Part shown: piece by piece, positions 1 to 44,359 of the stretch | Numbering within the stretch: the stretch's first letter is position 1 | Layout: the number at the start of each line of letters is the position of its first letter | From: a virus | IMG/VR virus record: IMGVR_UViG_3300045988_089178 | DNA: 64,000 nt | Direction: 5' to 3' (one strand) | The notes under the pieces: generated by a model | Told to the model about the DNA's origin: nothing | Databases searched by the model: none | What the model saw: only the letters and a program-made list of their open reading frames with translations | Translations under genes and position numbers: made by a program

Positions 1-1379
1 AATTTTAAATTAGGACGAAGAAGATTTTTATTGCTATCAAGTATTGGATCAAGTTTTACCAAATCTTCATCTGTAACTCCAAGAAGAATCATGCCAACAT
101 CAATTCTATCTGCAATACTTTTAGCTCCACGTAACAAATTTTGATCTGGTGTTTCACTATTCTAATAATCTGCATTTAATTGAGTTGCAGACATAATAAA
201 TATACCATATTTATTTGCTAAATCTTTTAATCTTGCGGAAAGCATGAATAAGATATTATCTTCTCTTAATTTAACTCCGCCAGATTTCTTACTAATTTCT
301 TCAAGAATCTTGAGAGATGTTTGTAAATAATCGAATAAAACATACTTAACTTCATGTTCACGGATATTCTTTTTTATTTTATTTTCTACATCTTGCAAAG
401 AAAAATCCGGCAATTCTTCAATCCAAATCGGACTTCTTTTAATAATTTCCGCGGCTTTGAGAACTCGATCCTTTTCTCCATCAAAATATTGGCCATTCAA
501 GATATGTTCTTCATTTACATCAGAAAGAAATGCTAACATCATAGTTTGCACTTCTCCTTTATCTTGCTCTGTCGCAATAAACAAAGTTGGTTGAGAAGTT
601 CCGTTTTTAATCCATCCAAATTGATCATGATAGATCTCATTACACGCAAAATTACAAGCATCTGCAATCATTGATCTAGTTTTTCCAGTTCCTGTAGCAG
701 CTGACCGCAAATAAAATTTTCGCAATCTTGCGCCTCTTGTTACTGTATTAATCAATGGGCCATATAAAGGAATACCGACTTCTGGATGTTGTTCTAAATC
801 ACTGATTAAATCGTCGATTCCGTCTCCGGCTTGATACCCCAATCCTAAATCATCTTCAATATATTTACTCTTGATTTCATCTATTTTTACATCAATAGCA
901 TGAGCTATTTCAACTAAACTTGTATTATCTAACCAATCTTCTTGCATTTGTCTCTTTTTAGTATCAAGAATATTATTTGGATCGTAAAGATAGGTTACAT
1001 CAAGGCCAAAATTATTATATGCCCTTAATAGAGTGAATTTTTTTAATCTATTATAGTAGTAATTAAAAGTATCCTATCGAGCGTTTTGTGATGCTTCAAG
1101 AAGATAATCTACACCTTTATTTTGTTTAAATATAGCATCAAATTTGGGTCTATTCGCTAAATAATCTATAATTGCATCAATATTGACTTGACTGCCTGTT
1201 AGATGAATATTATAGATACTCCCAAAGATAATTTTGTGAAAATCCTCTTGAAAATCATCTTCATGAATTATATATTTATCTGCATCATCGAGAATAGAGG
1301 CATTATTAAATACACACCCAATTATTTGAGTAATTGCTGCTGTATCTACATAGTTACTCTTCATGTGTTTCCTCCTCAT
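1..1379 (-). CDS. dnaB: DnaB-like replicative helicase (N-terminal domain + RecA-like C-terminal ATPase); runs past the window start; in-frame TAG at 162-164 and 1074-1076
   Basis: N-terminal DnaB-like domain (1379..1077). Walker A GTGKT. C-terminal motif QLNADY[TAG]NSETPDQNLLRGAKSIADRIDVGMILL matches DnaB H4 (QLNRSLEQRADKRP..SDLRESG.IEQDAD). ORFs 162..947 and 1074..1379 are in one frame, joined only by TAG. Confidence 0.7.
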
Positions 1380-1887
1380 TTAAGAAAGTAAATAGCTTTC
1401 GTATATGTTTCATTGGTTGTCGCTGAGGAGGCTCTATATGAACTTCTCTTACAGGCAAAATAAATTCTTTTATATTTACCTGCTCATTTCTTTCTCTTGC
1501 TTCCCACAATGCTCTCCAATATAGATATGCTTCATCATAAACAAAAGGAACAATACCAATTCCACCATTGGCCTTTTCAATAGAATTTCCTTTTATCTCA
1601 AAAAAATATTTTAATGTTTTATATATTCCTGTATATGAATAATTTCTATCTTTTTTAAAGGTTTCTATTTGTTTTTTAATTTTTGGGGAGATACAATTAA
1701 TTCCAAATAAATCCTTTATATATTTTTCTAATAATTCTTTATCTTTTTCTTCTTGAGTTTTATTTTCTTCTGCCGTTTGCGCACAAGTTTTATGAGCGTA
1801 ACGTCTTGAGTTTGGTTTAACGTATGGGGTGGTTGATGCATCAAATACTTCTCCACAGTAAAAACATTTTACCATGTGTTTCGCCAT
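1354..1887 (-). CDS. zinc-ribbon protein, probably replication-associated (hypothetical)
   Basis: N-terminal CxxC...HxxC; sits between helicase and Sak4-like genes. Confidence 0.35.
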   Translation of the reverse strand: MAKHMVKCFYCGEVFDASTTPYVKPNSRRYAHKTCAQTAEENKTQEEKDKELLEKYIKDLFGINCISPKIKKQIETFKKDRNYSYTGIYKTLKYFFEIKGNSIEKANGGIGIVPFVYDEAYLYWRALWEARERNEQVNIKEFILPVREVHIEPPQRQPMKHIRKLFTFLNEEETHEE

Positions 1888-1989
1888 ACATTACGCTCCT
1901 TTCTTTATAACCTTATATAAATATAATATCATATTTTAGATAAAAAATCAAGGAAGGAGAAATATCCTTGATACTCTCCTTCCTTTTAT

Positions 1990-2970
1990 TTAGGTCTTAA
2001 TTAAGTCTTCTAATTCATGAATAATTAGATCCAATTGTTCAGACTGTTCGGGAGTGCAGTCTCCAACTTTTTTCCCTTTGCCTAAAAATTTATCAACAAT
2101 AGCAGTAATTTTAACTGCATTGGATTGATTTTCTGACATAAGATTTCCAACTAAATCATTAAATCTTGTCATTAGATAATCAAAATCATAAGTAACATCT
2201 TCTGTGACAACTTGTGTTGCCTCATCTGTAATATACTTGCCACCAGTTTCTTCTGCTTGCTTATCAATAGCATCAGAAATTGCTTTTACAAGATTATCAT
2301 ATGTAAATTCAATAGATTCTGGAACATATTTAAATCTTGAACCGGCAACATATTGCGGAGTTCCGCGCATAAAGAGACGAGTTTCTGTGCCTCCAGATTC
2401 ATTGGTTACAGAACGAGAATAACCAATAATATCACAAGTTCTCTCACAAATTAATCTACCTCTATTGTCAAGAGTTGGTACAATTTGAGAAGCGACATCT
2501 TCTCCTTTTGCATTTTTTTCTGTCTTTACTTTGGCATGAGAAATCAAAATAAGACCATAATTAAGTTGTAGAATTTTACGAATTGCTTCATCAAATTCTG
2601 TACTAACAAGTGCGTATCCCTTTCCATAAGGAATATCACCAATAGTATCAACAGCCTCGCGTCCGCAAATAAATTTCTCACAATAGCCATATGCAATGTC
2701 TGCTGTATCAATTACAATAGTTTGGAATTTTTCTTGAACTTCTGGAGTTTTTAATTCACTAAAAAGTTTCTTAAATTCACCCCAACTATTGATTGGTTGA
2801 GCATATACTCCTGGCAAGGCATTATAACCTTTCTCAAAAGCAAGTAGTAGCGCTTTTGGAAACTTACTAGCAATAGTTGTTTTGCCAGACTTTGGATCCC
2901 CATAGAAAAATACTGAATAACCTCTTAAATCTCTTGATACTTCATGTGGTTTAATATCTAATAAACTCAT
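1990..2970 (-). CDS. Sak4-like (AAA_24) RecA-fold recombination ATPase
   Basis: Walker A FFYGDPKSGKTT; Walker B VIDTAD; overall AAA_24 layout. Confidence 0.55.
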   Translation of the reverse strand: MSLLDIKPHEVSRDLRGYSVFFYGDPKSGKTTIASKFPKALLLAFEKGYNALPGVYAQPINSWGEFKKLFSELKTPEVQEKFQTIVIDTADIAYGYCEKFICGREAVDTIGDIPYGKGYALVSTEFDEAIRKILQLNYGLILISHAKVKTEKNAKGEDVASQIVPTLDNRGRLICERTCDIIGYSRSVTNESGGTETRLFMRGTPQYVAGSRFKYVPESIEFTYDNLVKAISDAIDKQAEETGGKYITDEATQVVTEDVTYDFDYLMTRFNDLVGNLMSENQSNAVKITAIVDKFLGKGKKVGDCTPEQSEQLDLIIHELEDLIKT

Positions 2971-3027
2971 TTATTAATCGCTCCTTCTAAAATTAATTGG
3001 GAAAGAAAGGGAGAAAATCTCCCTTTC

Positions 3028-3984
3028 TTAGAATTTATATTCTCCCTTTGCAGGAGCGGAAGTAGAAGTACCGCTAAGTGCGTTACCCTTTGTAGCCTGA
3101 TACTCGTCTTGACGCTTTTTAATTTCTGCAAGAGTAACTTCGCGAGCAGCCATCTTTTCATTAAGTTCAGAAACAAGAAGAGTCTCTTCGCTATCCCACG
3201 CATAAGTTTCAGGTTGTGCCCAGTTAATTACAAAATCTCGCTGAGAGTTACGAACCTCTTTTACCTTTGTATCACCAAAAGCACTTTCTTCTTCAATTTT
3301 GCGAATTACTGTCTTAGAAATTTGAACACCTTGTACTCTAGTAAATACTGGAGAACTAGAAGTTGCTCCAAGATTCTCAAAATAATCAAGAGCCTTTTCT
3401 GGTGCATAAGGAGTATATACATTAAATTCAACAGGAAGTAGAGATCCACGGAAATCAAAAATGCACCCTTTTACAGTTACCTTTTCAGGTAAATCGCGCT
3501 CTTCATCAGCTTCTGTACGAATTACATTAGTAATAACCATATCAGTATCAAATGTTGCACGATTCTTTTCTTCCGCGAGCTCCTGAGTCACATGGACAAA
3601 CCCACCCTCATTTCTTTTTACACTTACAAGAGGGTGACCAGTAGTATTATTATCATACCACTCATTTAGACCAATAGCAGAATCAATACGGAGCTTTCCT
3701 GCGTTTTCTTTACCATGCTCCATTACAGAGCCAATCTTTCCCTCAATAATATTCAAAAGAACTCCATAGGTAGAATTTGCTTTTCCGTTTTTAGTAGTCT
3801 CAGTTACATAACTAAAATGAACATCAACTACATTTAGCATTTCATCATCGGTTGCAATTCTTAAAATACCGTTAATAAACTCTGTTCCAGGATTTTTAGA
3901 ATTTTCTCCAGAAACTTTCTTTTCGAGCTTATGCTCATAGACATACCCTTCAATATGAGTAGCATTAATCATTTTCTTTTTCAT
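3028..3984 (-). CDS. hypothetical protein (possible ssDNA-binding protein)
   Basis: 318-aa ORF next to Sak4-like gene; no motif recognised. Confidence 0.3.
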   Translation of the reverse strand: MKKKMINATHIEGYVYEHKLEKKVSGENSKNPGTEFINGILRIATDDEMLNVVDVHFSYVTETTKNGKANSTYGVLLNIIEGKIGSVMEHGKENAGKLRIDSAIGLNEWYDNNTTGHPLVSVKRNEGGFVHVTQELAEEKNRATFDTDMVITNVIRTEADEERDLPEKVTVKGCIFDFRGSLLPVEFNVYTPYAPEKALDYFENLGATSSSPVFTRVQGVQISKTVIRKIEEESAFGDTKVKEVRNSQRDFVINWAQPETYAWDSEETLLVSELNEKMAAREVTLAEIKKRQDEYQATKGNALSGTSTSAPAKGEYKF

Positions 3985-4360
3985 TATTTAACTCTCCTCT
4001 ATACTTTTCAATATCAAAATTTTTACCTTTTTCGGTCAGGGTATAAACCACAGGATTAGAACCAAACTTCTCAACAAAACCATCAGAAACTAACTTTCTA
4101 ATAGAACCAGAAACTTTTCTGGAAGAAATCTCCATCCCATCAGCTATATCTTTTGCTTTTAAAGATTTAGCATTACTATTTTGAAGATACTCAAGGATTT
4201 GAAATCCAGTTTCAGTAAAAAGAGGTTTATCAATATGCTTGTCTTGTTGTGAACGAAGAATATCATAAAATTCTTTTACTTCATCCGGGATAATAACAGG
4301 TTCTTTACAATTAGCTATAAGCCAATCAAAATAATTTAAAAAAGTCTCACATTTGTTCAT
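3965..4360 (-). CDS. winged-helix transcription regulator (MarR-like)
   Basis: 131 aa, wHTH-like region SRKVSGSIRKLVSDGFV. Confidence 0.35.
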   Translation of the reverse strand: MNKCETFLNYFDWLIANCKEPVIIPDEVKEFYDILRSQQDKHIDKPLFTETGFQILEYLQNSNAKSLKAKDIADGMEISSRKVSGSIRKLVSDGFVEKFGSNPVVYTLTEKGKNFDIEKYRGELNNEKEND

Positions 4361-4413
4361 ATCATTTTCCTCTTTATTTTATATAAATATAATAACATAT
4401 AAAATAAAGATTG

Positions 4414-5040
4414 TCAATCAAGAGCAATATCATCAAAGATTACAGAGATTTTTTCCTTGACTTTATTAAGTGCAATAATTGCTACTTCTCTCATTTGCGG
4501 ATGCGCGGCTGGAGAGCAGCGAAGCTTGAAGAAATGCCGCCATTCCCGCAAATCCGCAGTCATAACTACTTCTGTTTTTAAACTATTAGGTAGAACTGCT
4601 CTTGCTTCTTGGGGTGTGCATCCAGTAGAGAGCATATTAAAATATTCCTCTTCCGCATTTTGGCAGGCATTATACCAATGATCGTAAGCTGGATTGCTCT
4701 TGATTAAGAAACAGGGTTCAATAACAGTAATTTCATTTCCGAACCCGTCTTTCGAATAATTGCAATATCTTGTAGATTCTTGACAATAGGCAGCCAATCT
4801 ATGACGAACAATTTCATGGCTAACACCTCTATCGCAAATAAATTTAAGAGTAAAAGAGCAATGCTCGAGGACTGCTTCATGTCCTCTTTTAATAATATTC
4901 TAAACAAATTTTACAGCACTATCTTCTGTAATCTTATCTTCAGATTTATAACAAACTCTACCGCACTGTTCAATTCGTTTAAGAATTATCTCACCGTCAA
5001 TAGGTGTAATCAGTTCAACATCTGGCTTAATAATTTTCAT
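4414..5040 (-). CDS. thyX: FAD-dependent thymidylate synthase ThyX with in-frame TAG at 4900-4902
   Basis: N-terminus MKIIKPDVELITP..GRVCYKSEDK..[TAG]NIIKRGHEAVLEH; RHR..S motif HEIVRHRLAAYCQESTRY; C-terminal REWRHFFKLRCSPAAHPQMRE. Confidence 0.75.
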
Positions 5041-5041
5041 A

Positions 5042-5317
5042 TTATTCCTCACTTAAATTATATCCAATAAGTTCCATACAAGGATTTATTAATCGCAATA
5101 ATATCTCTACTTCATCAATTACGAATTTTTCCTTCAAATCTCTACTTTTTAGAAATTCAGAATAACTAATACAATTTAGTCCAATAATTCCATATTGTTC
5201 TGCTTTAATTCTCATTGAGCGTGGATTGCTACATACAAAAATAGCATCATTATCTTTAGCATATTGCATTAGTTGATAGGTTTTTCCAGTACATCTGTTA
5301 CCAATAATTCTAAACAT
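5042..5317 (-). CDS. small P-loop NTPase
   Basis: Walker A GNRCTGKT; ATG overlaps the upstream TAA (taATG). Confidence 0.35.
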   Translation of the reverse strand: MFRIIGNRCTGKTYQLMQYAKDNDAIFVCSNPRSMRIKAEQYGIIGLNCISYSEFLKSRDLKEKFVIDEVEILLRLINPCMELIGYNLSEE

Positions 5318-6230
5318 TAAGACCCTCCGCGAGTAGTATTTAAACCAAAATCTTTCGTTTTATAAAACTCAATCCAATAAGTTTCTCTCTCATTTAAATT
5401 TTCCCTTGAAACTTCTTCTAAAATCTCAAAGGTAAAATTATGAACTCCAGATTTCTACATGGTAGAATATAGTTTATTGGTTGCTTTTCCGTAAGTTAAA
5501 GCAGATTTAATATGTTGTCTAAAACGTTCTTTTATATCAACTGACTATCCTATATAGGATTTCCCAGTGGTCAAATCAGTTATCCTATAAATCCCACAAT
5601 ATTTAATTGCTTTTGGGAATAACCGAGCTGTTAATATATCATAAGCTGGTTTATAATACACTTCCCATATTAACTTATCTATGCTTTCTTTTTTGACAAA
5701 TCTAGGTTGCAACTCACGCAATAATGTAATATCATTTATATCAATTTCATCAAGAGCTAAACGATAGTAATCTTGATTAGAGTCAATCTCTTCCTATCTT
5801 TGTTGAGCCTAAATATAAGCAAGTTGTTTAGCTTGTAAATCCGCTAATTTACTGGATTCGATAGAAATTTTATTTGATAAATCTTGACTTTTAGCATCAA
5901 AAGTCATAGTAAGCTCATTTTCTTTTTCTTCATAGGATTTTAAAAGTGCGGAAATGCGAATCTAGTATGCCTCATCAGCTTGCTTTTGTGCATTTTCCCG
6001 CATTTCTTCCTAAGATTTTACTAGAGAAGAAAGAATTTCATTTTCAGAGTATATATTTTCTTTTATATTAGATAATACTTCTCTATTATGTTTTATTTCC
6101 TATTCTATCTCTGAGTTTTTCCTCTAATTATCTATATTAACTTCAATTATTTGATGCTCTTGTTTCTTGAGATAATAGATATAAATTATTAACCCGATTA
6201 TAGTAATTAATAATAACCCTATAATCATAT
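5316..6230 (-). CDS. GIY-YIG endonuclease-like protein with N-terminal TM helix and coiled coil; at least 8 in-frame TAG
   Basis: Manual translation: MIIGLLLITIIGLIIYIYY...; C-terminal GIYRITDLTTGKSYIG[TAG]SVDIKERFRQH...ETYWIEFYKTKDFGLNT; starts just after terminator hairpin 6233-6266. Confidence 0.5.
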
Positions 6231-6232
6231 TT

Positions 6233-6266
6233 AAAAAATTCGGGGAGAGTTAACCTCTCCCCGAAC
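6233..6266 (-). terminator. rho-independent terminator
   Basis: cggggagag-gttaac-ctctccccg then T-run on minus. Confidence 0.6.
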
Positions 6267-6270
6267 AAAA

Positions 6271-6546
6271 TTACTCTTGAGCGTCTGGGTCGAGATCTAG
6301 CCCGCTTTGAGTTAAATGGAGATACTTTACCTTCTGATGAGAACCATCTTCAAGAGTTACCTCATCAGGAACGCGCTCTCCAAGTCCCTTGCGTTGGAAA
6401 GCAGAAGTAAAAATACCATCAACTTGACGCTTCTCAAGTCCAAGAGCTTCAGCAACATCTGCCGCTGTTAAATTTTCACCATTATGCTCCTTTAAATAAT
6501 CTAAAACCTTACGAGTATTTTCTTTCATAGCTGCCATAGTAGACAT
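6271..6546 (-). CDS. small HTH-like protein
   Basis: 91 aa; LTAADVAEALGLEKRQV. Confidence 0.3.
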   Translation of the reverse strand: MSTMAAMKENTRKVLDYLKEHNGENLTAADVAEALGLEKRQVDGIFTSAFQRKGLGERVPDEVTLEDGSHQKVKYLHLTQSGLDLDPDAQE

Positions 6547-6876
6547 TCTCCTTTAATAATAAATTTATTTTAATTTAATTTGTTGCTAAATCTTGAACCA
6601 TAGTGTCAATTTCTAGCATAATATTTATCCCGTCGCTTAATGACATAATTTGATTGGTAATCTGCATAATTCGATTATCGGCTCGGGATTTTTCTTCCTT
6701 TGAGGAAGTTTCATTTTGGTGAATTTGCTCACATTTATAAAGTTCTTGAGCGAGCTTTTTCATCTATTTTCGGGTCATATAATTTCTATCCTTTATCCCT
6801 GAATTACATATATATTATATCTAAAATATTTTTTTAAGTCAAGAATTTTAGGTAAATATCTCAGCAAAGTTAGATT

Positions 6877-7983
6877 TTATGAGAAAATTTCATCTATAAT
6901 ACAATCTTTTGTGTCTTTATCTTCTCTCCACAACTTTAATACTGGGTGTCTTAATGTATGTTCTTTTTTATCAATAGACATGCAATCAAGAGAAACAACT
7001 TTATTAAGATAGTTCCGCGGATTTTCAGTCATATCGCGCTTCATGTCATCAGTTAGACCAGAACTAACCGTACCTAATTCTATTAGTTCGCCTTGATTAT
7101 CATAAGCGCCAACTTTAATTGCTGTATTCCATCCATAGAAATAGTATCTGCTAATAGGGATTGTTCTATAATCGGGAGATCTAATTGCTTTATAGGAATT
7201 TATTTTTTCTTGTTCTACCCATACTCCATTCTCGCCTTGTTTTTCAATAGCCCAATACTCCCATGTATCTATCTCTTTTCCTGTATATTCTTTTGTTGGA
7301 GGACAAAAACCTATGCAGATTAAATCAATAGAATCCATCTGTTTAATTTTAATTGTAGACCAAGCGGGACGTTTTCCAGGAGTATAAGGATAATCCCTTT
7401 TCTTTAAAACCGCGCCTTCGCCGCCACTTTTCAAGATTCGAGAGATTTCTTCTTCAAGATTAGTGTCTACTTTTACTGCTAGCCGCAAGAAACTATATTG
7501 TGATAAATTATGTTTTTCCCATACTGCCGCAAGGATTTTATATCTATCTTCTGCACCGACATTTACTAAATTAATATTATCATATTCAATTATATCATGT
7601 ATATAATAATGAATAGGATTATCTTTTTGCCTTTTGATAGCTAAATCTGGTAGGCATCCCATTATGCTTGTTACTGATTTAGATGTCCCTCCAGGATAAT
7701 AAATCTCGCCAATTAAAATTGTATTTGATGGCATACAATTTAAGGCTTCAATAATATGAGGCACATTTGCACCTTTTTCAGAGAGTAATCCAGTTGTTGT
7801 ACTTGTATTACGAGAAAATAGATAACTGTAGTTATCTGTCTTTTCAAACTCATACCAATATCCATCAATTTTTTCTTCGAGAAAATAATCTCCAGATTGG
7901 CACATTTCAGAAAGCATAGATTCTTTACCAGCAGGTAATTTCCACACCTTCATAGCATCTATCATTTTAGCTTCAGGATACAT
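6877..7983 (-). CDS. ATP-dependent DNA ligase
   Basis: Motif I KxDG in EEKIDGYW; size matches minimal phage ligases. Confidence 0.7.
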   Translation of the reverse strand: MYPEAKMIDAMKVWKLPAGKESMLSEMCQSGDYFLEEKIDGYWYEFEKTDNYSYLFSRNTSTTTGLLSEKGANVPHIIEALNCMPSNTILIGEIYYPGGTSKSVTSIMGCLPDLAIKRQKDNPIHYYIHDIIEYDNINLVNVGAEDRYKILAAVWEKHNLSQYSFLRLAVKVDTNLEEEISRILKSGGEGAVLKKRDYPYTPGKRPAWSTIKIKQMDSIDLICIGFCPPTKEYTGKEIDTWEYWAIEKQGENGVWVEQEKINSYKAIRSPDYRTIPISRYYFYGWNTAIKVGAYDNQGELIELGTVSSGLTDDMKRDMTENPRNYLNKVVSLDCMSIDKKEHTLRHPVLKLWREDKDTKDCIIDEIFS

Positions 7984-8189
7984 TATTTATCAAACTCCTT
8001 ATATTCTTTATATCCAAAGTAAATTCCTATAGGAATGGCATATAAAAATAAAAACCAAGGACTAACAGTAAAACATAAGATGATTGGTAAAAATATTGTC
8101 ATAGCTAAAACGAAGACAAGAAGAATGTCAACTAGTATGAATTTAATAAGAGTAGAATTTTTTAATTTATCAATCATATAAAACCTCAT
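7983..8189 (-). CDS. small membrane protein
   Basis: Two hydrophobic helices. Confidence 0.35.
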   Translation of the reverse strand: MRFYMIDKLKNSTLIKFILVDILLVFVLAMTIFLPIILCFTVSPWFLFLYAIPIGIYFGYKEYKEFDK

Positions 8190-8270
8190 TTTTTCTCTTT
8201 ATATAAATATATTATAATAATAAAAAAGAAAAATCAACTAAAGATAAGAATGGTTTTACCACTCTTATCT

Positions 8271-10637
8271 TTAGATCTTGGCTACTGAAATAATCTTATC
8301 ATTATTTTTTATCATTATATTTCCCATAGAAATTCTTGATAGCTTGGGAAAATCTTTTACACTAACGACAATAGAACTCTTATTACCAGAAATTAAAATA
8401 TCATTATCATCAGACACCAATTCTGCTCCGACAACTGTTCCTTTGTAACATGATACTCCTTTGCCACCGCGGTTTTGTTTATTAAACTCTTTTAGCTCAA
8501 TTTTCTTTCCAAGACCATCTTCTGAAATAATAGCAAGGTAATCTGCATTATTGCTTATTGGTAATGCAGCGATAATACTATCATCATCGGATATATTCAT
8601 TCCTTTTACTCCTTGCGCGGTTCTAGAAGAAATTGGCATTTCCGCGGTATTAAATCTTATAGTCATTCCATTTTTAGTAACAAGTATCATTTCCTCTTGA
8701 TTTATAAAAGTTACTGCGGCGAGTTCATCACCATCTTTTAACTTAATTGATACAATTCCAGTTCTCTTCATTGCGTCATATTCTTCCAGAGGAACTTTTT
8801 TGACTATTCCTTTTTTAGTAGCAAAGAATATAAACTTCTTATTTGTATCTCTTGTTAAAGTAGTATATGCCATAGGAGTTTCATTATCTTCAAAAGTAAT
8901 CAAAGTAGATAAGGGTACGCCAATAGAATTGTTATTTCCTTCTGGAATATTATCCACGAGCAGTCTATACATCTTTCCTTTTGATGAAAATATCATCAAA
9001 GTATCTTGTGTATTTGTAGCAGAAGAAAATGCTATAATGTCATTAATTTTCATTCCAGTAGTATTTCTTTTTTGAGGTTTAAAGGCTTTTTTCGCAATTC
9101 TTTTTACTGTGCCTTTACTAGAAATAATAACAACGCAATCTTCTGGCTCTACAACTACTTGTTCTTTCTCTTGTTTAGGGATTTCTGTATTAATAAGTTT
9201 TGTGCGGCGAGCATCTCCATATGTATCTTTAAGTTCGGTAATAAGTTTAATTAACTTATTATTCCTTACTTCTTTATTATTTAACACCTCATTACACTTA
9301 GCTATAAATTCTATTTTTTCGTTTAGCTCGTCAACTAACTCTTGTTTATCAATGCGAGTTAATTTGCCAAGTTTCATATCTAAAATAGCTTTAGCTTGAA
9401 TATCATCTACATCTAAGAAAGCAATTAGTTCTTTCTTTGCTTCATTAGTGTTATTTGCACTTTTAATAATTTTGATAACTTCATCAATCTTATCAACAGC
9501 AGCGATCAATCCCTCAAGAATATGTTTGCGGGCCTCAGCTTTTTCCTTATCAAACTGAGTTGCTTTAATCAATACATCTTCCTGATGGCTGACATAAATC
9601 TGTAATAAATCTATCATTGAGCAAAGTCTAGGAGTTCCATTTACAATATAATTCATATTATAAGAAATAGAAGATTGTAAGTCAGTTAATACAAATAATT
9701 GATTTAATGCTTTAGATACAGAAACACCATCTTTTACATAAAATACAAGCCTATTATTACCGATATTTGATTCATCATCAAAATCTTCAATAATCTCACT
9801 TAATGTTTCAATATTCTTCTCTATTTGCTCTTTTATTTTATTTCGATAGGTTCTATAAGGAATACTTGTAAAGATAATTTTTTGCCCATCAATTTCATAG
9901 TCGCCTTGAATTTTCAAAGAGATTGTGGATTTTCCCGTTTTAAACGCGCTCTTTATATCCTTGATATTTAGAACAGTTCCGCCAAGAGGGAAATCTGGGC
10001 CAGGAATATAGGTTAGTAATTCATCAATAGTGAGCGAGCCTTTTTGAATTAGAGCAATTGCTGCATTACATACTTCTGTTAAATTATGTGGAGCGCTATT
10101 ATGGGCCATGGAAATACCAATGGCTTGTCTTCCATTGCAAATAGCATTTGGAAAAAGGGCTGGTAAAATCACTGGCTCCATAAATTCTCCATTATATGTT
10201 TCTTTAATTGGAACTACATTTTTCTTGTAATCATTCATCATTATATCAGCAAATAATGAAGGTTTTGCCTCTGTATAACGAGAAGAAGAAAACATATCAT
10301 TATTTTCTTGAGTTCCTAATTGTCCTTGTCCTGTAATAAGAGGATAACGCATTAAAAATGGTTGTGCCATCTTTCGAAGAACACCATAGCAAGCAATATC
10401 ACCATGAAAGTAAGAGGTGGCTAGAGTAGAACCAACAATAGCATTACACTTTTTGGTCTTACTCTTATTATTCATCTTTAAATAATCTTCCATAGTCCAA
10501 ATGATTTTTCTTTGCGCGCTTAACAGCCCATCCTCCGCCGCAGGAATGGCTCTATCAGTTAAAACCTCTTCTGCATATGTTAAAAATGTGTTTTTTGCTT
10601 CATCAAGAATATCTACTTCTGTAATTAAACTACTCAT
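8271..10637 (-). CDS. type IIA topoisomerase subunit A (GyrA/ParC-like)
   Basis: 788 aa; catalytic-Tyr region SSSRYTEAKPS (cf. AAMRYTEARL). Confidence 0.7.
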   Translation of the reverse strand: MSSLITEVDILDEAKNTFLTYAEEVLTDRAIPAAEDGLLSAQRKIIWTMEDYLKMNNKSKTKKCNAIVGSTLATSYFHGDIACYGVLRKMAQPFLMRYPLITGQGQLGTQENNDMFSSSRYTEAKPSLFADIMMNDYKKNVVPIKETYNGEFMEPVILPALFPNAICNGRQAIGISMAHNSAPHNLTEVCNAAIALIQKGSLTIDELLTYIPGPDFPLGGTVLNIKDIKSAFKTGKSTISLKIQGDYEIDGQKIIFTSIPYRTYRNKIKEQIEKNIETLSEIIEDFDDESNIGNNRLVFYVKDGVSVSKALNQLFVLTDLQSSISYNMNYIVNGTPRLCSMIDLLQIYVSHQEDVLIKATQFDKEKAEARKHILEGLIAAVDKIDEVIKIIKSANNTNEAKKELIAFLDVDDIQAKAILDMKLGKLTRIDKQELVDELNEKIEFIAKCNEVLNNKEVRNNKLIKLITELKDTYGDARRTKLINTEIPKQEKEQVVVEPEDCVVIISSKGTVKRIAKKAFKPQKRNTTGMKINDIIAFSSATNTQDTLMIFSSKGKMYRLLVDNIPEGNNNSIGVPLSTLITFEDNETPMAYTTLTRDTNKKFIFFATKKGIVKKVPLEEYDAMKRTGIVSIKLKDGDELAAVTFINQEEMILVTKNGMTIRFNTAEMPISSRTAQGVKGMNISDDDSIIAALPISNNADYLAIISEDGLGKKIELKEFNKQNRGGKGVSCYKGTVVGAELVSDDNDILISGNKSSIVVSVKDFPKLSRISMGNIMIKNNDKIISVAKI

Positions 10638-10649
10638 TTATACACTTCC

Positions 10650-12539
10650 TCATTCAAAATTAAATCCTAATTCTTCTGCATTATCATAGATATATTGCTT
10701 GCGGGGTTCAACTGCGCTTCCCATCAAAATTTCGAGCAATTCTGTGGTAGCTTTGGCATCACTAATAGTAATGCGTTTATATCTTTCATTCATAAAACAT
10801 ACTTTTTGCAGATCCTCTGGATTTAATTCTCCCAATCCCTTAGCTCTAAGTAAATCATAACTGCCGCTATGATTCTTTTTCCACTCTTCAAGTTCATTGT
10901 CACTATAACAGTAATACTCTTTTCCTTTTTGTCGAATAATATATAATGGAGTTACAGCTCTATATAACTTACCAGCTTCAATAAGAGGACGCATATATGT
11001 ATAGAAGAAAGTAATAAGCATTAATTCAATATCTGCACCATCACTATCTGCATCGGCCGTGATTACAACTTTATCAACGGTCAATTTACTAATATCAAAA
11101 TCTTTACCAAAACCTCCACCAAGGATCCTAATAATATCAGACATTTCTTGGTTAGAAAGTAGCTTATCAATAGCAGTCTTTAATGGGCTGATAATCTTTC
11201 CTCGCAACATATAAATGCAATCAGTTTTAGGATTTCGTGCTTCTACTGCGGAAGCTCCTGCTGATAGTCCCTCAACAAGCAAGAGATTACGATCTTTAGG
11301 ACTACGATTTCCGCAATCAATAAACTTGTTACTAAGTTTCATTTTTGCCTTTAATCCGGTTTCTTTCTTTGTCTTTATTCCTCTTGCTGCCTCTCTTGCT
11401 TTACGAGCTGCCTCTCTTGCTTTTCTAGCATTTAATGCTTTATCCGCGATACTTTTAATTTCTTTTTCATTTGTTGTGAACCAATATTGCAGCTCTTCTG
11501 CTATTGCTTGTGTAAAAGGTTTCATATCTAGTTTTGTGACACGAGATTTTACTTGAGCATCATATCCAATATTTGGTGCTGTAATATTAAAAACAAGATA
11601 CATTCCTTCTTGGCAATCATCTCCAGAGAGATTTTCATCCTTATCTTTTAGCCACCCTTTTTCTCGGAAGAATTTATTAAATTCTCTTGTTAAAAGGGTT
11701 TTAATTTGCGTAATATGCGGACCTGCTTCTGTTAAACCAGTATTTACATATGGAACAATCGTAGAAGAGTAGTTATTTGTGTAAGTTAGAGCTAAATCCA
11801 ACTTATTTTTACCTTCGGAAAAATTAATTGAGAAACGATTTTTCAGAATCTCTTTTCCCTTAACGCCTTCATCTAACAAATCCATAAGACCATTCTTAGA
11901 GAAGAACTCTGTCTTTTTTCCATTATCATCTAGTTTGATAGTTAGCCCCGGACAAAGACATACAATAGTTTTAAATAAGGAGTTTAATGCTTTTGCGTCT
12001 GGCTTTGGATCAGTAAAAAACTCTTCACTTGCAATCCAGAAAACAGAAGTTCCATGAACATTTTTATCAACCTTACAAGAATCTCTAGATTCAAAAATGC
12101 CCTCTTTGAATCTTACTTGTTCTCCTTCTCCATCTCTATATGTCCACACAGTTAATTCATGACTAAGATAAGTTGCAAGTTTGCTACCAATACCAAAACT
12201 ACCAAGAGAAGTTCCCTCATAAGTTCCATCTTCTCTATATTTACCACTGGTATTTAATACACTAAATGCGGCTTCCAAAATTGTTTTCCCATCTTCTCTA
12301 AAAGAATTAGGAATAAATCCTTGACCATGATCGCTGACAGACACTCTGGCACCATTAATTTGTACGTCTATTTCATTACCGTGACCCAATCTAAATTCAT
12401 CTACCGAGTTTGATACAATCTCTACTACTAATTGAGTAGAAGTTGATGTATCTCCGCAATATACCCCAGGTCTTAAACGAGTAAATTCTAGAGGACTTAA
12501 TGACTCAATACTTTTTTCATTATATAACTTATCTGACAT
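10650..12539 (-). CDS. type IIA topoisomerase subunit B (GyrB-like ATPase + TOPRIM)
   Basis: GHKL region GHGNEIDV..; TOPRIM-like LVEGLSAGASAVEAR; next to A subunit. Confidence 0.7.
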   Translation of the reverse strand: MSDKLYNEKSIESLSPLEFTRLRPGVYCGDTSTSTQLVVEIVSNSVDEFRLGHGNEIDVQINGARVSVSDHGQGFIPNSFREDGKTILEAAFSVLNTSGKYREDGTYEGTSLGSFGIGSKLATYLSHELTVWTYRDGEGEQVRFKEGIFESRDSCKVDKNVHGTSVFWIASEEFFTDPKPDAKALNSLFKTIVCLCPGLTIKLDDNGKKTEFFSKNGLMDLLDEGVKGKEILKNRFSINFSEGKNKLDLALTYTNNYSSTIVPYVNTGLTEAGPHITQIKTLLTREFNKFFREKGWLKDKDENLSGDDCQEGMYLVFNITAPNIGYDAQVKSRVTKLDMKPFTQAIAEELQYWFTTNEKEIKSIADKALNARKAREAARKAREAARGIKTKKETGLKAKMKLSNKFIDCGNRSPKDRNLLLVEGLSAGASAVEARNPKTDCIYMLRGKIISPLKTAIDKLLSNQEMSDIIRILGGGFGKDFDISKLTVDKVVITADADSDGADIELMLITFFYTYMRPLIEAGKLYRAVTPLYIIRQKGKEYYCYSDNELEEWKKNHSGSYDLLRAKGLGELNPEDLQKVCFMNERYKRITISDAKATTELLEILMGSAVEPRKQYIYDNAEELGFNFE

Positions 12540-13130: not shown

Positions 13131-13466
13131 TTAAATAGGACCATCGAGATCAATGGGAATATCATTAGAGGCTGAAAAATCTTCTGCGGGGATGTTATAT
13201 GCAGAATTGAATTCAGTTTCTTTTAAAGCTAGGTCATAAGTAATGCCGCCCTTTTTGTGATCTGATTTAGCCATTGCTAAATAAAAAGAACAAACTACTC
13301 CGTGGGCGCTCCATGGTAGACCAACAAGAGCACTAATCCATGGAAGGGTTCCTAAATATCCCATATAAACACACATAAATGCCAAAAGGATACCTGACAC
13401 AGTCACGACCCATAATAACATACGAATATCATTTATAAGTTTTTTGGAAAATTCTAATTTTTTCAT
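13131..13466 (-). CDS. holin-like membrane protein
   Basis: 111 aa, 2-3 TM helices, next to amidase. Confidence 0.35.
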   Translation of the reverse strand: MKKLEFSKKLINDIRMLLWVVTVSGILLAFMCVYMGYLGTLPWISALVGLPWSAHGVVCSFYLAMAKSDHKKGGITYDLALKETEFNSAYNIPAEDFSASNDIPIDLDGPI

Positions 13467-13693
13467 TTTAAACCCAGCTTTTCAGCCAATCTTCTTAACA
13501 TAGTTACAGTTTCTAATCTAGTGCAGAATTTATTTGGCATCATTCTTCCAGCACTGTCTCCAGCCATAATCCCATTCGCTTTAGCCCATTCAAGATTATC
13601 GGTGCCCCAAGTTTCTTTTTCATTAGCTTTATTAGTAAGCCAAGTATTCATAAGTTCAGCGAATTTCTCGTCAGTCATATCTTCATCATCCTC

Positions 13694-14341
13694 CTAGATA
13701 TTTGACATTAAATTATAAACATCTGTTCTTGCGGTTTCCATGCTTTTCCCAAATTTTGGAAACCAATGGTTTACATCTGCATGATTAGATCCTAATCCTA
13801 GCTTGTGACTATCAGCATGACATAAAATAGTCGGAACGGTGATACCATTTAAAGTAGTGGTTCCCAATGGATTTATGTTATACATTTTACATAAATAAGC
13901 AGTAATTTGACAAGCCTCTTCATAAATTTTGTTAAAATAATTTGCATCATTTAATCCATCTTCGCAAATTTCAAACTGAATCCATCCATTATTACAAGAA
14001 CCTTTAGACCCAGAACCGCATCCCCAAGGACGATAATTCCATGGCATTGTCTATACTGTTGTTACTGTTCCATCAGCCAATTTACCAATCCAACAGTTTA
14101 ATCCAGCTTGAACAGATATATGATTCCAGTCATTCTTGCTAGTATTTTTTCCTAATTTATTTATTAAACTGGTGTAGTTAGGATCATTATCGCTTGGCTA
14201 TACATATCTTTTTAAATTAGGATTATTTGCACCAGTACTATGCCATAAGATTCCTTTAACTTGCATGGTGCGTGTTTGTTTATAGCAAGTGCTATTTGTC
14301 ATCATACATTGAAGTGGTTTATTGCTATCGCTATATTTCAT
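13694..14341 (-). CDS. N-acetylmuramoyl-L-alanine amidase (amidase_2/PGRP-like) with in-frame TAG (14051-14053 and one upstream)
   Basis: RBS GGAGGTAATAAAATG; C-terminal region ...TILCHADSHKLG..NHADVNHWFP. Confidence 0.55.
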
Positions 14342-14872
14342 TTTATTACCTCCTTCAATTACATTTGAAATGTTAGCAAATTTATTATAATACTATTGAC
14401 CATAATTAGCTCTCTTTTGTTGCATAGAAAAACTCTAGTCTGAAGGTCTTTCAAACTAGAGTAATACTGCGGTAGAGGCTTCTGTGACAGAAGTGGCAGA
14501 AATCAAAATTTTAACTAAACTAGAAAAACTTGTAATTAACTCCTAATATAAAAAATCTAATTGAGTATTTAAATCTCCAATGGATTTACCTCGACTTTGA
14601 CAGAACTAAAGCAAATTTTGTTTTCTGCTCCAAAATGTCCATTGAGCCAATCCATATCCCGCCCCATCTTTTACAAAGTTTTTATACCTTCCATCATCAA
14701 CTGCGGAGGTATATCCTGCGTCGGTCATTTTTAATTTTTTTTCATAGGTGTTCTATAAGTTAATAGAATTAAGACCACTTTCGGCATAAAGATTACCCAT
14801 TAAACCGGCAATTCCGCAATCACTAAAACCTTTGCCTTTAAAGTATTTCCAAATAATTTGAGCATTAGTCAT
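14342..14872 (-). CDS. phage tail-lysozyme-like domain ORF; in frame with the downstream amidase; 6 TAG in the distal third
   Basis: MTNAQIIWKYFKGKGFSDCGIAGLMGNLYAESGLN...GYGLAQWT (Phage_lysozyme2-like pattern); no TAA/TGA before the amidase ATG. Confidence 0.4.
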
Positions 14873-14874: not shown

Positions 14875-15729
14875 TTATTTTTTTGTAATGAAAGAGCTAT
14901 ATCCAGCAGATTTTAATTTATCTTTTAGTCTTTCTGCATTTAATTTCACAGAGAAAGCACCTAATTGAACTTTATAAAAAATTCCTACTTTCTTGACATA
15001 CCCGCTAAATCCTTTCTCTTCCAATTCCTTTAACATATTCTCTGCATTGGTTTTAGATAGAAATGCTCCTACTTGAACTCTGTAAAGAACTACCTCTTGT
15101 TCTTTCTTAAAATATACACACATTACATTATCAACTGGTCTTGCATAAATTTGAGAAGTTTTTCTTTTCCCATCTATTAGTAATCTAGTAGATCCGCCTC
15201 CATCTAAATTAATAGCATATTCTACTTTCAATTCAAGAAAAATTTGCTATAGGGCAGCATAAACAAGACCTGGAGAATCTACGGTTACAATATAATAATT
15301 ATTTTTATTCCATCCAATACAAGTCCTGCGGGCTTTATAATCTAATTCTTTTCCATCTGTTATAACTACTTTTTTGCTATCTACAATTAATGCAGGATAA
15401 GCTGCGATAAAATCTCTAGCGGTTTCATAATCTTTTAATGTTGTATATATAAGTGTTTTATTGCCGCTAATTGCAACTCCATGGCGAAAATCAGACTAAA
15501 TAACAGTTCCTTCGTCTTTATAACTAAAGCAAGTGTTGCCATTATTCATGGCAAAGAAACCTCCATTAGTAATAATATCTGGTTTAGTAGCCTGTCTTTT
15601 ATAATAAGCATCTGGAGTTTCCGTCGGTTGATTGCATAAGGCAAAGTCAATTTTTTCAATGTCTGTGAAGGGAATTGTTACAATTTGAACATAAGAATAG
15701 AGACTATGTTTTTTGATACTATATCCCAT
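14875..15729 (-). CDS. DUF2233 phosphodiester-glycosidase-like protein with two C-terminal SPOR repeats; 2 in-frame TAG
   Basis: NLDGGGS motif; two repeats YRVQVGAF..KL.E.GF (SPOR). Confidence 0.5.
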
Positions 15730-17307: not shown

Positions 17308-17760
17308 TTAATTATTATTGCCCTGACGAAATTTTCTAACTATCGAGAGCGCCTTAGTTTGATTTTTAATGTAAGTTTTTAAGTTAGTTTCTTCTGTTTT
17401 TAATGCTTTTTCAAGTGCGGAAATTCGAGCTGAGCAGCGTCCAATTGCATAATAAAAGTTTCCAGTAGGGTCAACTTCCGCAGGACTTAATCGCTCATAT
17501 TTTGTTGCCTCTTGATAATAGTCATATCTATATTGTAATTCTTTGCGAGTTTTTTTCATTTCATATTGCATAGCATTTATTCTTGCTTTTGATAAAGCGA
17601 TAGTTTTACCTACCTTTTCAGAAAAAAAATCTTTATCGCTTTCCGCTAACTTGGCTCGTCCGCTAAAGATTTTCCCATTATAATTAATTCCAACAATACA
17701 TATGCCAGATTTTTCATTAACTAGCTATGTAATTGTTGGAGCTTTATATATAGCACTAAT
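17308..17760 (-). CDS. hypothetical protein with in-frame TAG near the N-terminus
   Basis: Extending ORF 17308..17571 upstream gives MSVISAIYKAPTIT[TAG]LVNEK... Confidence 0.3.
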
Positions 17761-17844
17761 AACACTCATTATTGTTTTCTCCTAATCTTTTAAATCTTTA
17801 TATTAAAATTATATCATTTATTTATAGAAAAATCCAATTTTAAG

Positions 17845-21105: not shown

Positions 21106-21185
21106 AAATAAAACTCCCTTTCTTATATTATATAAATATTATATCATAAATATTATAAAAAATAAAGAGAGCTGTAAAGCTCTCT

Positions 21186-43413: not shown

Positions 43414-43435
43414 CTTTAAAATGCCTCCTTATTTT

Positions 43436-44265: not shown

Positions 44266-44359
44266 TACTTATTCTCCTTTCTTAAAGAAGTAGAGAAGAA
44301 AATTATCTCTCTTTATACTATATAACAATAATGACAAGAGATTTCACATAAATTGTCCA

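Follow-up and report, generated by a model that had tools for sequence, protein, structure and literature searches.

The 64-kb stretch analyzed here (64,000 nucleotides, in the following referred to as the window) very probably stems from a tailed phage of the human gut with a genome of ~148 kb, an SPbeta-like replication module and genetic code 15, i.e., TAG read as glutamine. In agreement with the original prediction, TAG is a sense codon in this phage: protein domains cross TAG codons, relatives carry CAA or CAG at such positions and a tRNA with the anticodon CUA is encoded. In-frame TAG codons occur in about 16 genes of the window (Table 1). When TAG is read as sense, 61 genes terminate with TAA and 20 with TGA, and these two codons are the sole terminators in this phage.

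Table 1. [quoted passage not shown]
Feature	Position	Strand	Remarks
DnaB-like (SPbeta YorI-type) replicative helicase	1-1379	-	Two TAGs (162-164, 1074-1076); C-terminal ~58 aa lost at window start
ThyX flavin-dependent thymidylate synthase	4414-5040	-	TAG 4900-4902 (codon 46)
GIY-YIG endonuclease-like gene	5317-6228	-	Eight in-frame TAGs
67-aa small ORF	6575-6778	-	One TAG (6764)
Endolysin, Phage_lysozyme2 + Amidase_2 + SLH-like C-terminus	13463-14872	-	Nine TAGs
NAGPA/SPOR-domain cell-wall protein	14875-15729	-	Two TAGs (15496, 15247)
Hypothetical gene	17308-17769	-	One TAG (17725)
CxCxCG-repeat protein, possibly homing-endonuclease-like	25826-26689	-	Six TAGs
Suppressor tRNA (putative), anticodon CUA	38271-38346	-	ARAGORN, Rfam, MFE fold
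Tail-fibre gene block	39799-44266	-	Five ORFs, all TAG-bearing
AAA+ ATPase	44662-45783	-	TAG 45751-45753 (codon 11)
Family-1 uracil-DNA glycosylase (UDG)	57844-58557	-	TAG 58450-58452 (codon 36)
Main tRNA array	44547-55732	-	27 of the 31 window tRNAs (ARAGORN) and tmRNA 48762-49077

Coding Frames Continue Across TAG

The coding density, as estimated with a crude self-trained gene caller and not with Prodigal, was 0.703 under the standard code and 0.793 when TAG was read as sense; for the sequence outside the tRNA arrays, the corresponding values were 0.808 and 0.907. The mean gene length rose from 166 to 204 amino acids. A control in which TGA was treated as sense did not bring any gain (0.687 overall, 0.792 outside the tRNA arrays). 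The median in-frame open run past the end of a coding-like segment amounted to 98 codons for TAG compared with 9 for TAA and 5.5 for TGA. On the basis of an off-frame TAA plus TGA frequency of 0.081 per codon, the open frames past TAG codons have chance probabilities of 1e-6 to 1e-18. Alignments of the TAG-bearing genes with full-length homologues are colinear without frameshift, gap or terminus at the TAG codons, and at the DnaB, ThyX and amidase sites the relatives have sense codons or TAG, never a gap or a real terminus. The intactness of these reading frames, claimed from the outset, is thus borne out.

In the genes for the DnaB-like helicase and ThyX, CTA on the plus strand corresponds to in-frame TAG on the minus strand, and both proteins run continuously across these codons as had been proposed. 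The two helicase sites (amino acids 102 and 406) are spanned by the Pfam domains DnaB (amino acids 18-113) and DnaB_C (amino acids 210-431), the ThyX site is spanned by Pfam Thy1 (amino acids 21-197, E = 1.7e-48), and the alignments with DnaB and ThyX proteins from the PDB are unbroken. The open frame extends for 303 codons past TAG 1074 (chance P ~7e-12) and for 161 codons past the ThyX TAG (chance P ~1e-6). On the other hand, placing these TAG codons inside conserved catalytic motifs (helicase motif H4 for the first DnaB codon, and likewise in ThyX) was too strong a statement, as the sites are variable positions adjoining conserved blocks. TAG 162 falls in a four-residue linker between two conserved blocks, SATQLN and SETPDQNLLRGAKSIADR; among 118 homologues this position is Q/K/R-variable (Q in 52, K in 44, R in 10) and not an invariant motif residue, and site 1074 is fully variable in the same set. 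The ThyX TAG is located six residues ahead of the RGHEAVLEH block, where homologues mostly have alanine (A in 86, Q in 21). In relatives of the window phage, the codon at 162 is CAG (in L005), CGT or AGA and that at 1074 is TCT, GAA or AAA; at 4900, L005 and L006 have CAA and L007 has GCG. The emphasis originally laid on essential replication genes is misleading: there are only one or two TAG codons in each of them, whereas most TAG codons reside in lysis, tail-fibre and endonuclease genes.

The endolysin gene contains TAG at 14753, 14606, 14543, 14456, 14435, 14393, 14198, 14051 and 13694. Glutamine is found at most of them in 120 homologues, and TAG is exchanged with CAA/CAG in relatives at the codon level, e.g., at 14051 (codon 274), where relatives have CAA, CAA and TAG. 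This TAG aligns with a glutamine of PlyL (1yb0), and TAG 14753 aligns with one of phi29 gp13 (3csr). Across 58 homologous loci, nearly all of them without in-frame TAG, the TAG sites are occupied by 148 CAG/CAA vs. 12 TAG codons, and the sites at amino acids 40, 146, 225 and 274 are near-invariant glutamines. At these four sites, ~55 TAG-free homologues from Clostridia genome assemblies, isolates included, carry CAG or CAA.

The TAG codons named earlier at 14051 in the amidase, about 58450 in UDG and about 45751 in the AAA+ ATPase are all in frame and inside coding sequences. UDG starts with GTG at 58557, preceded by a Shine-Dalgarno sequence, its homology with UDG proteins from the PDB begins at residue 3 (E = 1e-47), and its TAG stands opposite a glutamine of Coxiella UDG (3tr7). 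The ATPase (Pfam AAA) starts with ATG 45783 downstream of the Shine-Dalgarno sequence GGAAAGGAAG, and just downstream of this ATG there is no other in-frame start; a neighbouring TAG, at 45784 and just upstream of it, is noncoding. As predicted, all tail-fibre genes bear TAG: two in 39799-41136, five in 41162-42334, two in 42352-43413, five in 43434-44000 and two in the small ORF 44009-44266. The block has an Mtd_N-like N-terminus, and its frames are coding-like past every TAG. In the GIY-YIG gene, the Pfam GIY-YIG match covers two of the TAG codons, and at most sites relatives have CAA/CAG or the same TAG. Both TAG codons of the NAGPA/SPOR protein lie within Pfam NAGPA (amino acids 52-206), with the frame coding-like across both. 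The TAG of the 67-aa ORF corresponds to CAG in L003, L004, L005 and L007 and to TAG in L006, and that of the hypothetical gene corresponds to AAA in L003 and L004. The CxCxCG-repeat protein did not yield a Pfam match; one relative has TAG or CAA at some of its sites.

Glutamine as the Probable Inserted Residue and the Suppressor tRNA

Comparison with related sequences makes it highly likely that TAG is decoded as glutamine. When TAG sites of the window were compared with non-TAG codons of the relatives L003-L007, 39 of 82 were CAA or CAG, and the log-likelihood at TAG sites was -167.6 for glutamine and -264.1 for lysine as the next best residue, a lead of ~97 units over lysine and ~127 over serine; L003 and L004 are near-duplicates, so these counts are partly replicated. 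About half of the TAG sites, DnaB 1074 among them, are variable with K, R, E or A in relatives. The original prediction had named neither glutamine nor a suppressor tRNA.

The CUA tRNA is supported by ARAGORN, by the Rfam tRNA model (59.8 bits) and by a minimum free energy fold that equals the cloverleaf. It is canonical: the D-loop is normal and includes GG, the anticodon stem has 5 bp, the T-loop reads TUCGAAU, U1 and U72 are mismatched, the discriminator is G73, the CCA end is encoded, and there is no long variable arm. Related loci contain CUA tRNAs as well (41 in 80 loci). The tRNA is homologous to, and 85.5% identical with, one tRNA-Sup-CTA of the gut phage phAss-1, which was typed as Gln by its authors with tRNAscan-SE (PMC10607447). 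Among 479 phage tRNAs, its closest sequences are tRNA-Ser(UGA) genes without a long arm and not tRNA-Gln, and its only Gln-like traits are U1 and G73, weak pairing between positions 1 and 72, and an acceptor stem resembling that of Gln(UUG). Recognition by GlnRS is linked to U35 and G73 as well as to weak 1-72 pairing. The tRNA is a putative Gln-inserting suppressor that presumably is charged with glutamine by a host enzyme.

The suppressor tRNA gene is set apart from the main tRNA array and adjoins the tail-fibre genes; a gene equipped with a Shine-Dalgarno sequence starts within ~20 nt on its 3' side. Outside the main array, four tRNAs are located at 37.2-39.1 kb, a range that includes the suppressor tRNA, which brings the window total to 31 (ARAGORN). 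The tmRNA was matched by Rfam with 116 bits, and the array tRNAs were also matched by Rfam. Together, array, tmRNA and the four tRNAs at 37.2-39.1 kb constitute the phage's own translation toolkit. In the window, no release factor and no tRNA synthetase could be detected, and a UCA tRNA is absent among its ARAGORN tRNAs.

TAG Distribution and Proposed Timing of Late Genes

Within the 64-kb window, with capsid, portal and terminase genes located outside of it, the share of TAG among glutamine codons is 27 of 83 for lysis and tail genes and 14 of 38 for endonuclease-like genes (33-37%), compared with 7 of 392 (1.8%) for the other 69 genes (Fisher's test vs. the other genes, p = 1e-16 and p = 1e-11, respectively). 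TAG-rich genes are those for the endolysin, the cell-wall protein, the tail fibres and the endonuclease-like proteins. Hardly any TAG occurs in the large genes for replication, nucleotide metabolism, NAD salvage and RNA repair, and the degree of recoding is lowest in replication genes.

This gene-class bias, taken by itself, fits the published model of late-gene timing. Preferred recoding of lysis and structural genes has been described, with replication genes variable and amidase and intron endonuclease among the most recoded, and the hosts of the recoded phages and prophages use the standard code (10.1101/2021.08.26.457843). At UAG, the suppressor tRNA(CUA) would compete with release factor 1 of the host. 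Following the published model, the host would use the standard code, and therefore TAG-free genes could be translated at once, whereas the TAG-rich lysis, tail and selfish-endonuclease genes would give full-length protein only once the suppressor tRNA has built up. TAG may thereby serve as a timing lock for late functions. Given the TAG codons in DnaB, ThyX and UDG, some middle functions would also need suppression. The host probably is an Oscillospiraceae-type Clostridia bacterium, as hinted at by lysin homologues and bins from Clostridia, Oscillospiraceae among them.

Alternative Explanations

Were the TAG codons genuine stops in decaying genes, the window would represent a degraded prophage or pseudogenised phage with long frames left over. 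Indeed, translation table 11 splits the genes and public standard-code annotations of relatives are fragmentary, e.g., the UDG calls of L088 and L089 comprise 82 aa and the annotated ThyX CDS of phAss-1 comprises 91 aa. However, the interruptions consist of TAG only, without in-frame TAA or TGA and without frameshifts, coding-like frames continue past them, and TAG codons fall on near-invariant glutamine sites of standard-code homologues. The same TAG codons recur in independent assemblies, they are kept or replaced by CAA/CAG in relatives of 60-90% identity, and a suppressor tRNA is present. Decay is thus exceedingly unlikely and pseudogenisation effectively refuted, which upholds the original preference for reassignment. 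Nothing specific speaks in favor of assembly or sequencing artefacts, the probability of which is negligible, as independent assemblies from ENA and Logan (L001, L002) have TAG at identical positions, and relatives that are more distant and stem from other samples have TAG codons at homologous positions.

That TAG stands for pyrrolysine or another residue than glutamine (Lys, Glu, Trp, Ser), or is decoded ambiguously, appears improbable. In its favor, ARAGORN labels the CUA tRNA "Pyl", the sequences nearest to this tRNA are tRNA-Ser(UGA) genes, relatives and phAss-1 also have CUA tRNAs of a second type whose long variable arm is a trait of Ser, Leu and Tyr tRNAs, and K, R and E follow next in frequency among the aligned residues. 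The label, however, is the ARAGORN default for any CUA anticodon. While tRNA-Pyl is atypical in D-loop, anticodon stem and T-loop features, the tRNA of the window is a canonical cloverleaf that scores 59.8 bits with a general tRNA model; TAG aligns with glutamine, and Pyl-related Pfam families were found neither in the scanned ORFs, a set that covered part of the small ORFs, nor in the precomputed annotations of the region. A pyrrolysine system was rejected on these grounds. SerRS requires a long variable arm, which the tRNA of the window lacks, and glutamine is favored over lysine and serine by the likelihood margins given above as well as by the four endolysin sites that are near-invariant CAG/CAA in standard-code homologues. 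Still less probable is a host that itself uses a TAG-reassigned code, such that the phage merely matches its host without any temporal switch. The near-complete tRNA set of the phage, and so unusual translation needs, could be taken to support such a host. Yet, with a TAG that is freely readable at any time, it would be difficult to account for the split between 69 of ~82 genes that are almost TAG-free (7 of 392 glutamine codons) and the lysis, tail and endonuclease genes, in which TAG has a share of one third. In addition, lysin homologues from Clostridia genomes, isolates included, are devoid of in-frame TAG, and published recoded phages and prophages have standard-code hosts (10.1101/2021.08.26.457843).

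Comparison With Known Recoded Phages and Suppressor Systems

For crAss-like phages, metaproteomics has validated code 15 (PMC9523058). With the known code-15 phages, i.e., crAss-like phages, Lak phages and the TAG-recoded clades of Borges et al. (10.1101/2021.08.26.457843; PMC7886860; PMC9523058), the window shares TAG at glutamine positions, a suppressor tRNA(CUA) of its own, TAA and TGA stops, an AT-rich genome and a recoding bias toward lysis and structural genes with variable replication genes and heavily recoded amidase-type lysin and homing endonuclease. It differs from them by SPbeta/YorI-like replication genes, a probable host from the Clostridia instead of the Bacteroidota, a suppressor tRNA outside the main array next to tail-fibre genes and a tmRNA within the array, and a "code-change module" of release factor or tRNA synthetase was not seen in the window.

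The 136-kb gut phage phAss-1 (OQ749652; proposed Phassvirus; NCBI "Caudoviricetes code 15 clade"; PMC10607447) encodes 36 tRNAs including Sup-CTA and has TAG in 41 ORFs. Both phages have ThyX as well as NAMPT, PRPP synthetase and nicotinamidase adjoining the tRNA array. Homologues for 25 of 82 window genes are present in phAss-1 with amino-acid identities of 27-75%, while at the nucleotide level 11 blastn HSPs cover ~3.7 kb of 64 kb. Furthermore, phAss-1 has three CUA tRNAs, one of them with a long variable arm, whereas the window has one. As judged from these comparisons, the window phage does not belong to the phAss-1 genus by any nucleotide-identity criterion and is a distant relative with similar architecture.

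In suppressor tRNAs associated with theta-ribozymes, an HDV-like ribozyme abuts the tRNA 3' end and CCA is usually not encoded (PMC10879173). The window tRNA, in contrast, encodes CCA, and a permissive Rfam scan of 37000-39800 did not reveal any ribozyme, although Rfam may lack a theta-ribozyme model.

Escherichia coli supE is a tRNA-Gln with the anticodon CUA that reads UAG, inserts glutamine and competes with RF1. Compared with such amber suppressors, the window tRNA is virus-encoded and needed for about 16 viral genes and, while supE is a tRNA-Gln, it does not show clear descent from a tRNA-Gln gene. The same logic, a stop codon recoded via a phage suppressor tRNA, holds for phages of the Agate, Jade and Sapphire clades that read TGA as tryptophan (code 4), and these are like the window in that recoding is enriched in late genes and the phages are those of Firmicutes. 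They use another codon and amino acid, while the window lacks a UCA tRNA and does not gain from TGA as sense. Code-15 phages are already well documented, and the phage described here adds a further case in a different lineage.

Reading frames continue across in-frame TAG codons

The window has a GC content of 36%, and its minus strand holds all RNA genes and almost all protein genes. As originally predicted, plus-strand CTA triplets within the DnaB-like and ThyX ORFs represent in-frame TAG codons on the minus strand (Table). Each DnaB TAG resides inside a Pfam domain (DnaB, aa 18-113; DnaB_C, aa 210-431), as does the ThyX TAG (Thy1, aa 21-197, E = 1.7e-48). At an off-frame rate of TAA plus TGA of 0.081 per codon within real genes, the 303 open codons after DnaB TAG 1074 have a chance probability of about 7e-12 and the 161 open codons after the ThyX TAG one of about 1e-6. 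In-frame TAGs were likewise found in the other genes for which they had been claimed. TAG 14051 is codon 274 of an endolysin with Phage_lysozyme2 and Amidase_2 domains and nine TAGs in total, TAG 58450 is codon 36 of a family-1 UDG whose match to solved UDGs begins at residue 3, and TAG 45751 is codon 11 of the AAA+ ATPase, downstream of an ATG with a strong Shine-Dalgarno sequence; another TAG (45784) is located just upstream of that ATG. All five tail-fibre ORFs contain TAGs.

Features of the window relevant to TAG recoding and its genomic context
Feature	Coordinates	Strand	Remarks
DnaB-like ORF	1-1379	-	truncated at window start; TAGs 162-164, 1074-1076
ThyX ORF	4414-5040	-	TAG 4900-4902
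GIY-YIG gene	5317-6228		heavily recoded
Thg1	19527-20381		TAG-free
NAD-salvage cluster	21186-25745	-	NAD synthase, NAMPT, PRPP synthetase, nicotinamidase; TAG-free
CxCxCG-repeat protein	25826-26689	-	287 aa; six TAGs; no Pfam match
RNA ligase	26784-28055		TAG-free
RlaP-like nucleotidyltransferase	30762-31565		TAG-free
MVP-like protein	32594-35035	-	813 aa; Major Vault Protein shoulder and repeat domains; TAG-free
DUF2828/DUF7788 protein	35447-36967	-	TAG-free
tRNA, anticodon CUA	38271-38346	-	ARAGORN; 59.8 bits, general Rfam tRNA model
Tail-fibre ORFs	39799-44266		TAG counts 2, 5, 2, 5, 2
tRNA-Tyr(GUA)-like sequence	~45813-45900	-	degenerate; long variable arm, imperfect T-arm
tRNA with insertion	46091-46207	-	117 nt, insertion of ~43 nt
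tmRNA	48762-49077	-	Rfam RF00023, 116 bits; tag peptide DNDYFENYLAA; within tRNA array

The claim that TAG 162 falls inside the conserved helicase motif H4 was not borne out. The codon occupies a linker position variable for Q, K and R, four residues past a conserved SATQLN block and immediately ahead of a conserved SETPDQNLLRGAKSIADR block, which we take to be the DnaB-family motifs H3 and H4, respectively. The five-motif definition of DnaB is cited in PMC1950529, where motif boundaries are absent. The ThyX TAG does lie near a conserved block, six residues before RGHEAVLEH, at a variable position that is usually occupied by Ala. The DnaB and ThyX TAGs establish continuity of the reading frame, not a conserved catalytic residue.

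Coding density was calculated with a simple self-trained gene caller for the whole window and for the part outside tRNA arrays. It rose, as predicted, from 0.703 and 0.808, respectively, under table 11 (the standard code) to 0.793 and 0.907 with TAG as sense, and amounted to 0.687 and 0.792 in a control with TGA as sense. Mean gene length increased from 166 to 204 aa with TAG as sense in a similar density run, and the genes called in this way terminate in TAA (61) or TGA (20) and nothing else. Raw stop-to-stop ORF coverage was discarded as undiscriminating, since at 36% GC reading TAA as sense inflates coverage above that with TAG as sense, and was therefore replaced by the codon-usage-scored caller and a stop-extension test, in which minus-strand open segments that are coding-like by codon usage were selected and the next in-frame open run was measured. 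The median next run was 98 codons after segments ending in TAG, with 11 of 16 runs both coding-like and at least 40 codons long; it was nine codons after TAA, where six of 53 segments were followed by long coding-like runs, all of them same-frame neighbour genes, and 5.5 codons after TGA (0 of 18).

TAG corresponds to glutamine in homologues

The public protein database contains the endolysin of this phage at full length with Q at every TAG (P0001, P0002). This Q reflects the choice of translation table and constitutes no evidence, so the amino acid was sought in codons of five syntenic phage contigs (L003-L007, about 127-148 kb). Opposite the window TAGs, 39 of the 82 non-TAG codons were CAA or CAG, followed by codons for K (10), R (8) and E (6), counts that are partly replicated because L003 and L004 are near-duplicates; under a substitution model derived from the same alignments, the log-likelihood was -167.6 for Gln and -264.1 for the runner-up, Lys, a margin that is still very large. 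With regard to individual sites, relatives exhibit CAG (in L005, the closest orthologue) and twice Arg codons at DnaB 162, TCT, GAA and AAA at DnaB 1074, CAA, CAA and GCG at ThyX 4900, and CAA, CAA and TAG at amidase 14051.

An independent set comprised 58 endolysin homologues, almost all without in-frame TAG, from bacterial genome assemblies including isolates, mostly of Oscillospiraceae, Lachnospiraceae and other Clostridia. Here, 148 CAG/CAA codons align with the nine endolysin TAG sites, and those at aa 40, 146, 225 and 274 (TAG 14051) are near-invariant Gln. TAG 14051 is also found opposite Q of Bacillus anthracis PlyL (1yb0), TAG 14753 opposite Q of phi29 gp13 (3csr) and the UDG TAG opposite Q of Coxiella UDG (3tr7). 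DnaB site 162 features Q, K and R in 52, 44 and 10 of 118 homologues, site 1074 is fully variable, and the ThyX site is Ala in 86 and Gln in 21 of 120 homologues; PDB homologues of the two proteins carry R, E or A opposite the TAGs, which shows continuity, not the amino acid. Taken together, the alignments indicate that TAG means Gln, which goes beyond the original prediction of a sense codon.

A phage tRNA with CUA anticodon very probably decodes TAG

The decoder of TAG is very probably a phage tRNA(CUA) with a standard cloverleaf fold, a U1-U72 mismatch, G73 and an encoded CCA end. Of 80 related IMG/VR loci, about half contain a CUA tRNA, at most 10 kb from the same marker gene. The window tRNA is 85.5% identical to one tRNA-Sup-CTA gene of phAss-1, a published code-15 gut phage (OQ749652); the Sup-CTA gene analysed by the authors of that genome was typed as Gln with tRNAscan-SE (PMC10607447). 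Closest to the window tRNA in sequence are tRNA-Ser(UGA) genes that lack the long arm, its acceptor stem is similar to that of the phage's own tRNA-Gln(UUG), and CUA tRNAs of relatives come nearest to tRNAs for Gln, Ser, Leu or Trp. As nearest-neighbour typing is ambiguous, the amino acid was taken from protein and codon alignments; our inference that the tRNA is charged with Gln rests on aligned proteins and not on its own sequence. A permissive Rfam scan of 37000-39800 found no HDV-like or theta ribozyme beside the tRNA, although Rfam may hold no theta model.

ARAGORN predicted 31 tRNAs and one tmRNA in the window, all on the minus strand; the tmRNA could be relevant to the rescue of ribosomes stalled at unsuppressed TAGs. 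The tRNA with insertion matches Rfam and received no ARAGORN call. The tRNA-Tyr(GUA)-like sequence, just downstream of tRNA-Leu(UAA), was missed by both programs, and no other tRNA-Tyr was called. A regular-expression search of the window and the fetched loci L001-L089 for the release-factor GGQ motif revealed neither this motif nor, by the same search, accessory genes for a code change.

Several readings other than reassignment of TAG by the phage were considered. Decay of the TAG-containing genes into pseudogenes was rejected: reassignment over pseudogenisation, as had been argued, is supported by the rise in density and by continuous orthologue alignments, in which sense codons or TAG are found at the TAG sites of DnaB, ThyX and the amidase. 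Assembly or sequencing artefacts and a host that itself reads TAG were likewise rejected, as was TAG as a codon for Pyl, a label that ARAGORN assigns to CUA anticodons by default.

Some relatives (L014, L021, L022, L037, L058, L059, L083, L086, L087) possess CUA tRNAs of 89-95 nt with a long variable arm, as does phAss-1 (62445-62532), and several related genomes encode two different CUA tRNAs each, a finding that prompts the question whether Gln is the meaning of TAG throughout this phage family. Long-arm and short-arm CUA tRNAs are both present in sister genomes and in phAss-1. We regard it as very unlikely that the suppressor descends from a long-arm (Ser-type) tRNA through loss of the variable arm, and not from a tRNA-Gln by mutation, in a system with two-tRNA decoding, tmRNA rescue and an endonuclease leash. 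Were this so, two differently charged tRNAs could read TAG in an ambiguous or stage-specific manner, the tmRNA of the phage could free ribosomes halted at TAGs that escape suppression, and the high TAG load of the two endonuclease-like genes would restrain selfish elements by means of the code.

TAG codons concentrate in lysis, tail and endonuclease-like genes

With TAG read as Gln, it accounts for 27 of 83 Gln codons in the endolysin, NAGPA/SPOR protein and tail-fibre genes (Fisher p = 1e-16 vs. other genes), for 14 of 38 in the GIY-YIG and CxCxCG-repeat endonuclease-like genes (p = 1e-11) and for seven of 392 in the other 69 window genes. DNA ligase, both gyrase/topo IV subunits, RNase H, NAMPT, NAD synthase, PRPP synthetase, RNA ligase, the MVP-like protein and the DUF2828 protein are free of TAG. 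The original emphasis on essential replication genes was somewhat misplaced because of this concentration: TAG does occur in DnaB, ThyX and UDG, but these are lightly recoded exceptions. The CxCxCG-repeat protein, heavily recoded like the GIY-YIG gene, is possibly encoded by a mobile endonuclease-like gene.

The same gene classes were reported for recoded phages by Borges et al. (10.1101/2021.08.26.457843), who found that recoding prefers lysis and structural genes, varies among replication genes and is among the strongest in an amidase and an intron endonuclease, and who explained this by a lock that recoding places on the expression of late genes in a host with the standard code. The bias observed here, with large early genes free of TAG, fits the notion that late expression is timed by recoding, and TAG would act as such a lock in this phage as well.

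Relatives, putative host and neighbouring genes

Megablast of window 1-12000 gave no match to GenBank phages, and no close relative was present among 50,697 GenBank phage records. In tblastn searches with GyrA, the DUF2828 protein and DnaB, best matches reached 35-40% identity with Enterococcus/Bacillus Tsamsa-like and SPbeta-like phages; the replication genes of the window are SPbeta-like (YorI, YorF, YorH). Relatives are numerous in IMG/VR as well as among the assemblies of ENA and Logan. Lysin homologues and MAG bins with related phage contigs weakly suggest a host among the Clostridia, possibly Oscillospiraceae. Phage-sized contigs of the family occur in GTDB MAGs labelled 'Eubacterium sp.' (L093, CALCFD010000051.1, 147,780 bp) and 'Oscillospiraceae' (L094, CALWOP010000177.1, 148,971 bp), either as a host clue or as binning contamination.

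At the ThyX locus, the relatives L003 and L004 (~64% identity) have ThyA and DHFR (19902-21271), a non-orthologous displacement of thymidylate synthesis. Some DnaB homologues of this phage family (P0329, P0352; ~780 aa) contain intein and homing-endonuclease domains (PF05204, PF14528) that are lacking in the window DnaB. The MVP-like gene adjoins that for the DUF2828/DUF7788 protein and, with the nearby RNA ligase, RlaP-like and Thg1 genes, looks like part of an RNA-repair or RNP-type module. The NAD-salvage cluster may counter NAD-depleting host defences.

Comparison with known recoded phages

For crAss-like phages, Lak phages and several further clades from the gut, it is established that TAG is recoded to Gln with suppressor tRNAs of the phage (PMC7886860; 10.1101/2021.08.26.457843). 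Such recoding has been validated by metaproteomics (PMC9523058), and NCBI taxonomy lists a 'Caudoviricetes code 15 clade'. As the phenomenon has been known since 2014, the window opens no new question; it provides a further independent instance of late-gene-biased recoding and extends the known TAG-to-Gln phages by a lineage that is associated with Clostridia and has SPbeta-like replication genes. This abundant gut phage has about 16 genes that break up when annotated with table 11; table 15 is advised for the window and its relatives. In public records of relatives the damage is visible: gene calls at the UDG locus of L088/L089 (14730-14978) give an 82-aa fragment of the 237-aa UDG, and phAss-1 ThyX is annotated in GenBank as a 91-aa CDS (OQ749652, 58187-58462). 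Among published phages, phAss-1 is the closest analogue, as it also has ThyX, Sup-CTA tRNAs and the same NAD-salvage cluster (NAMPT/PRPP synthetase/nicotinamidase) beside its tRNA array, but only 25 of 82 window genes are common to both, with 27-75% amino-acid identity and almost no nucleotide similarity.
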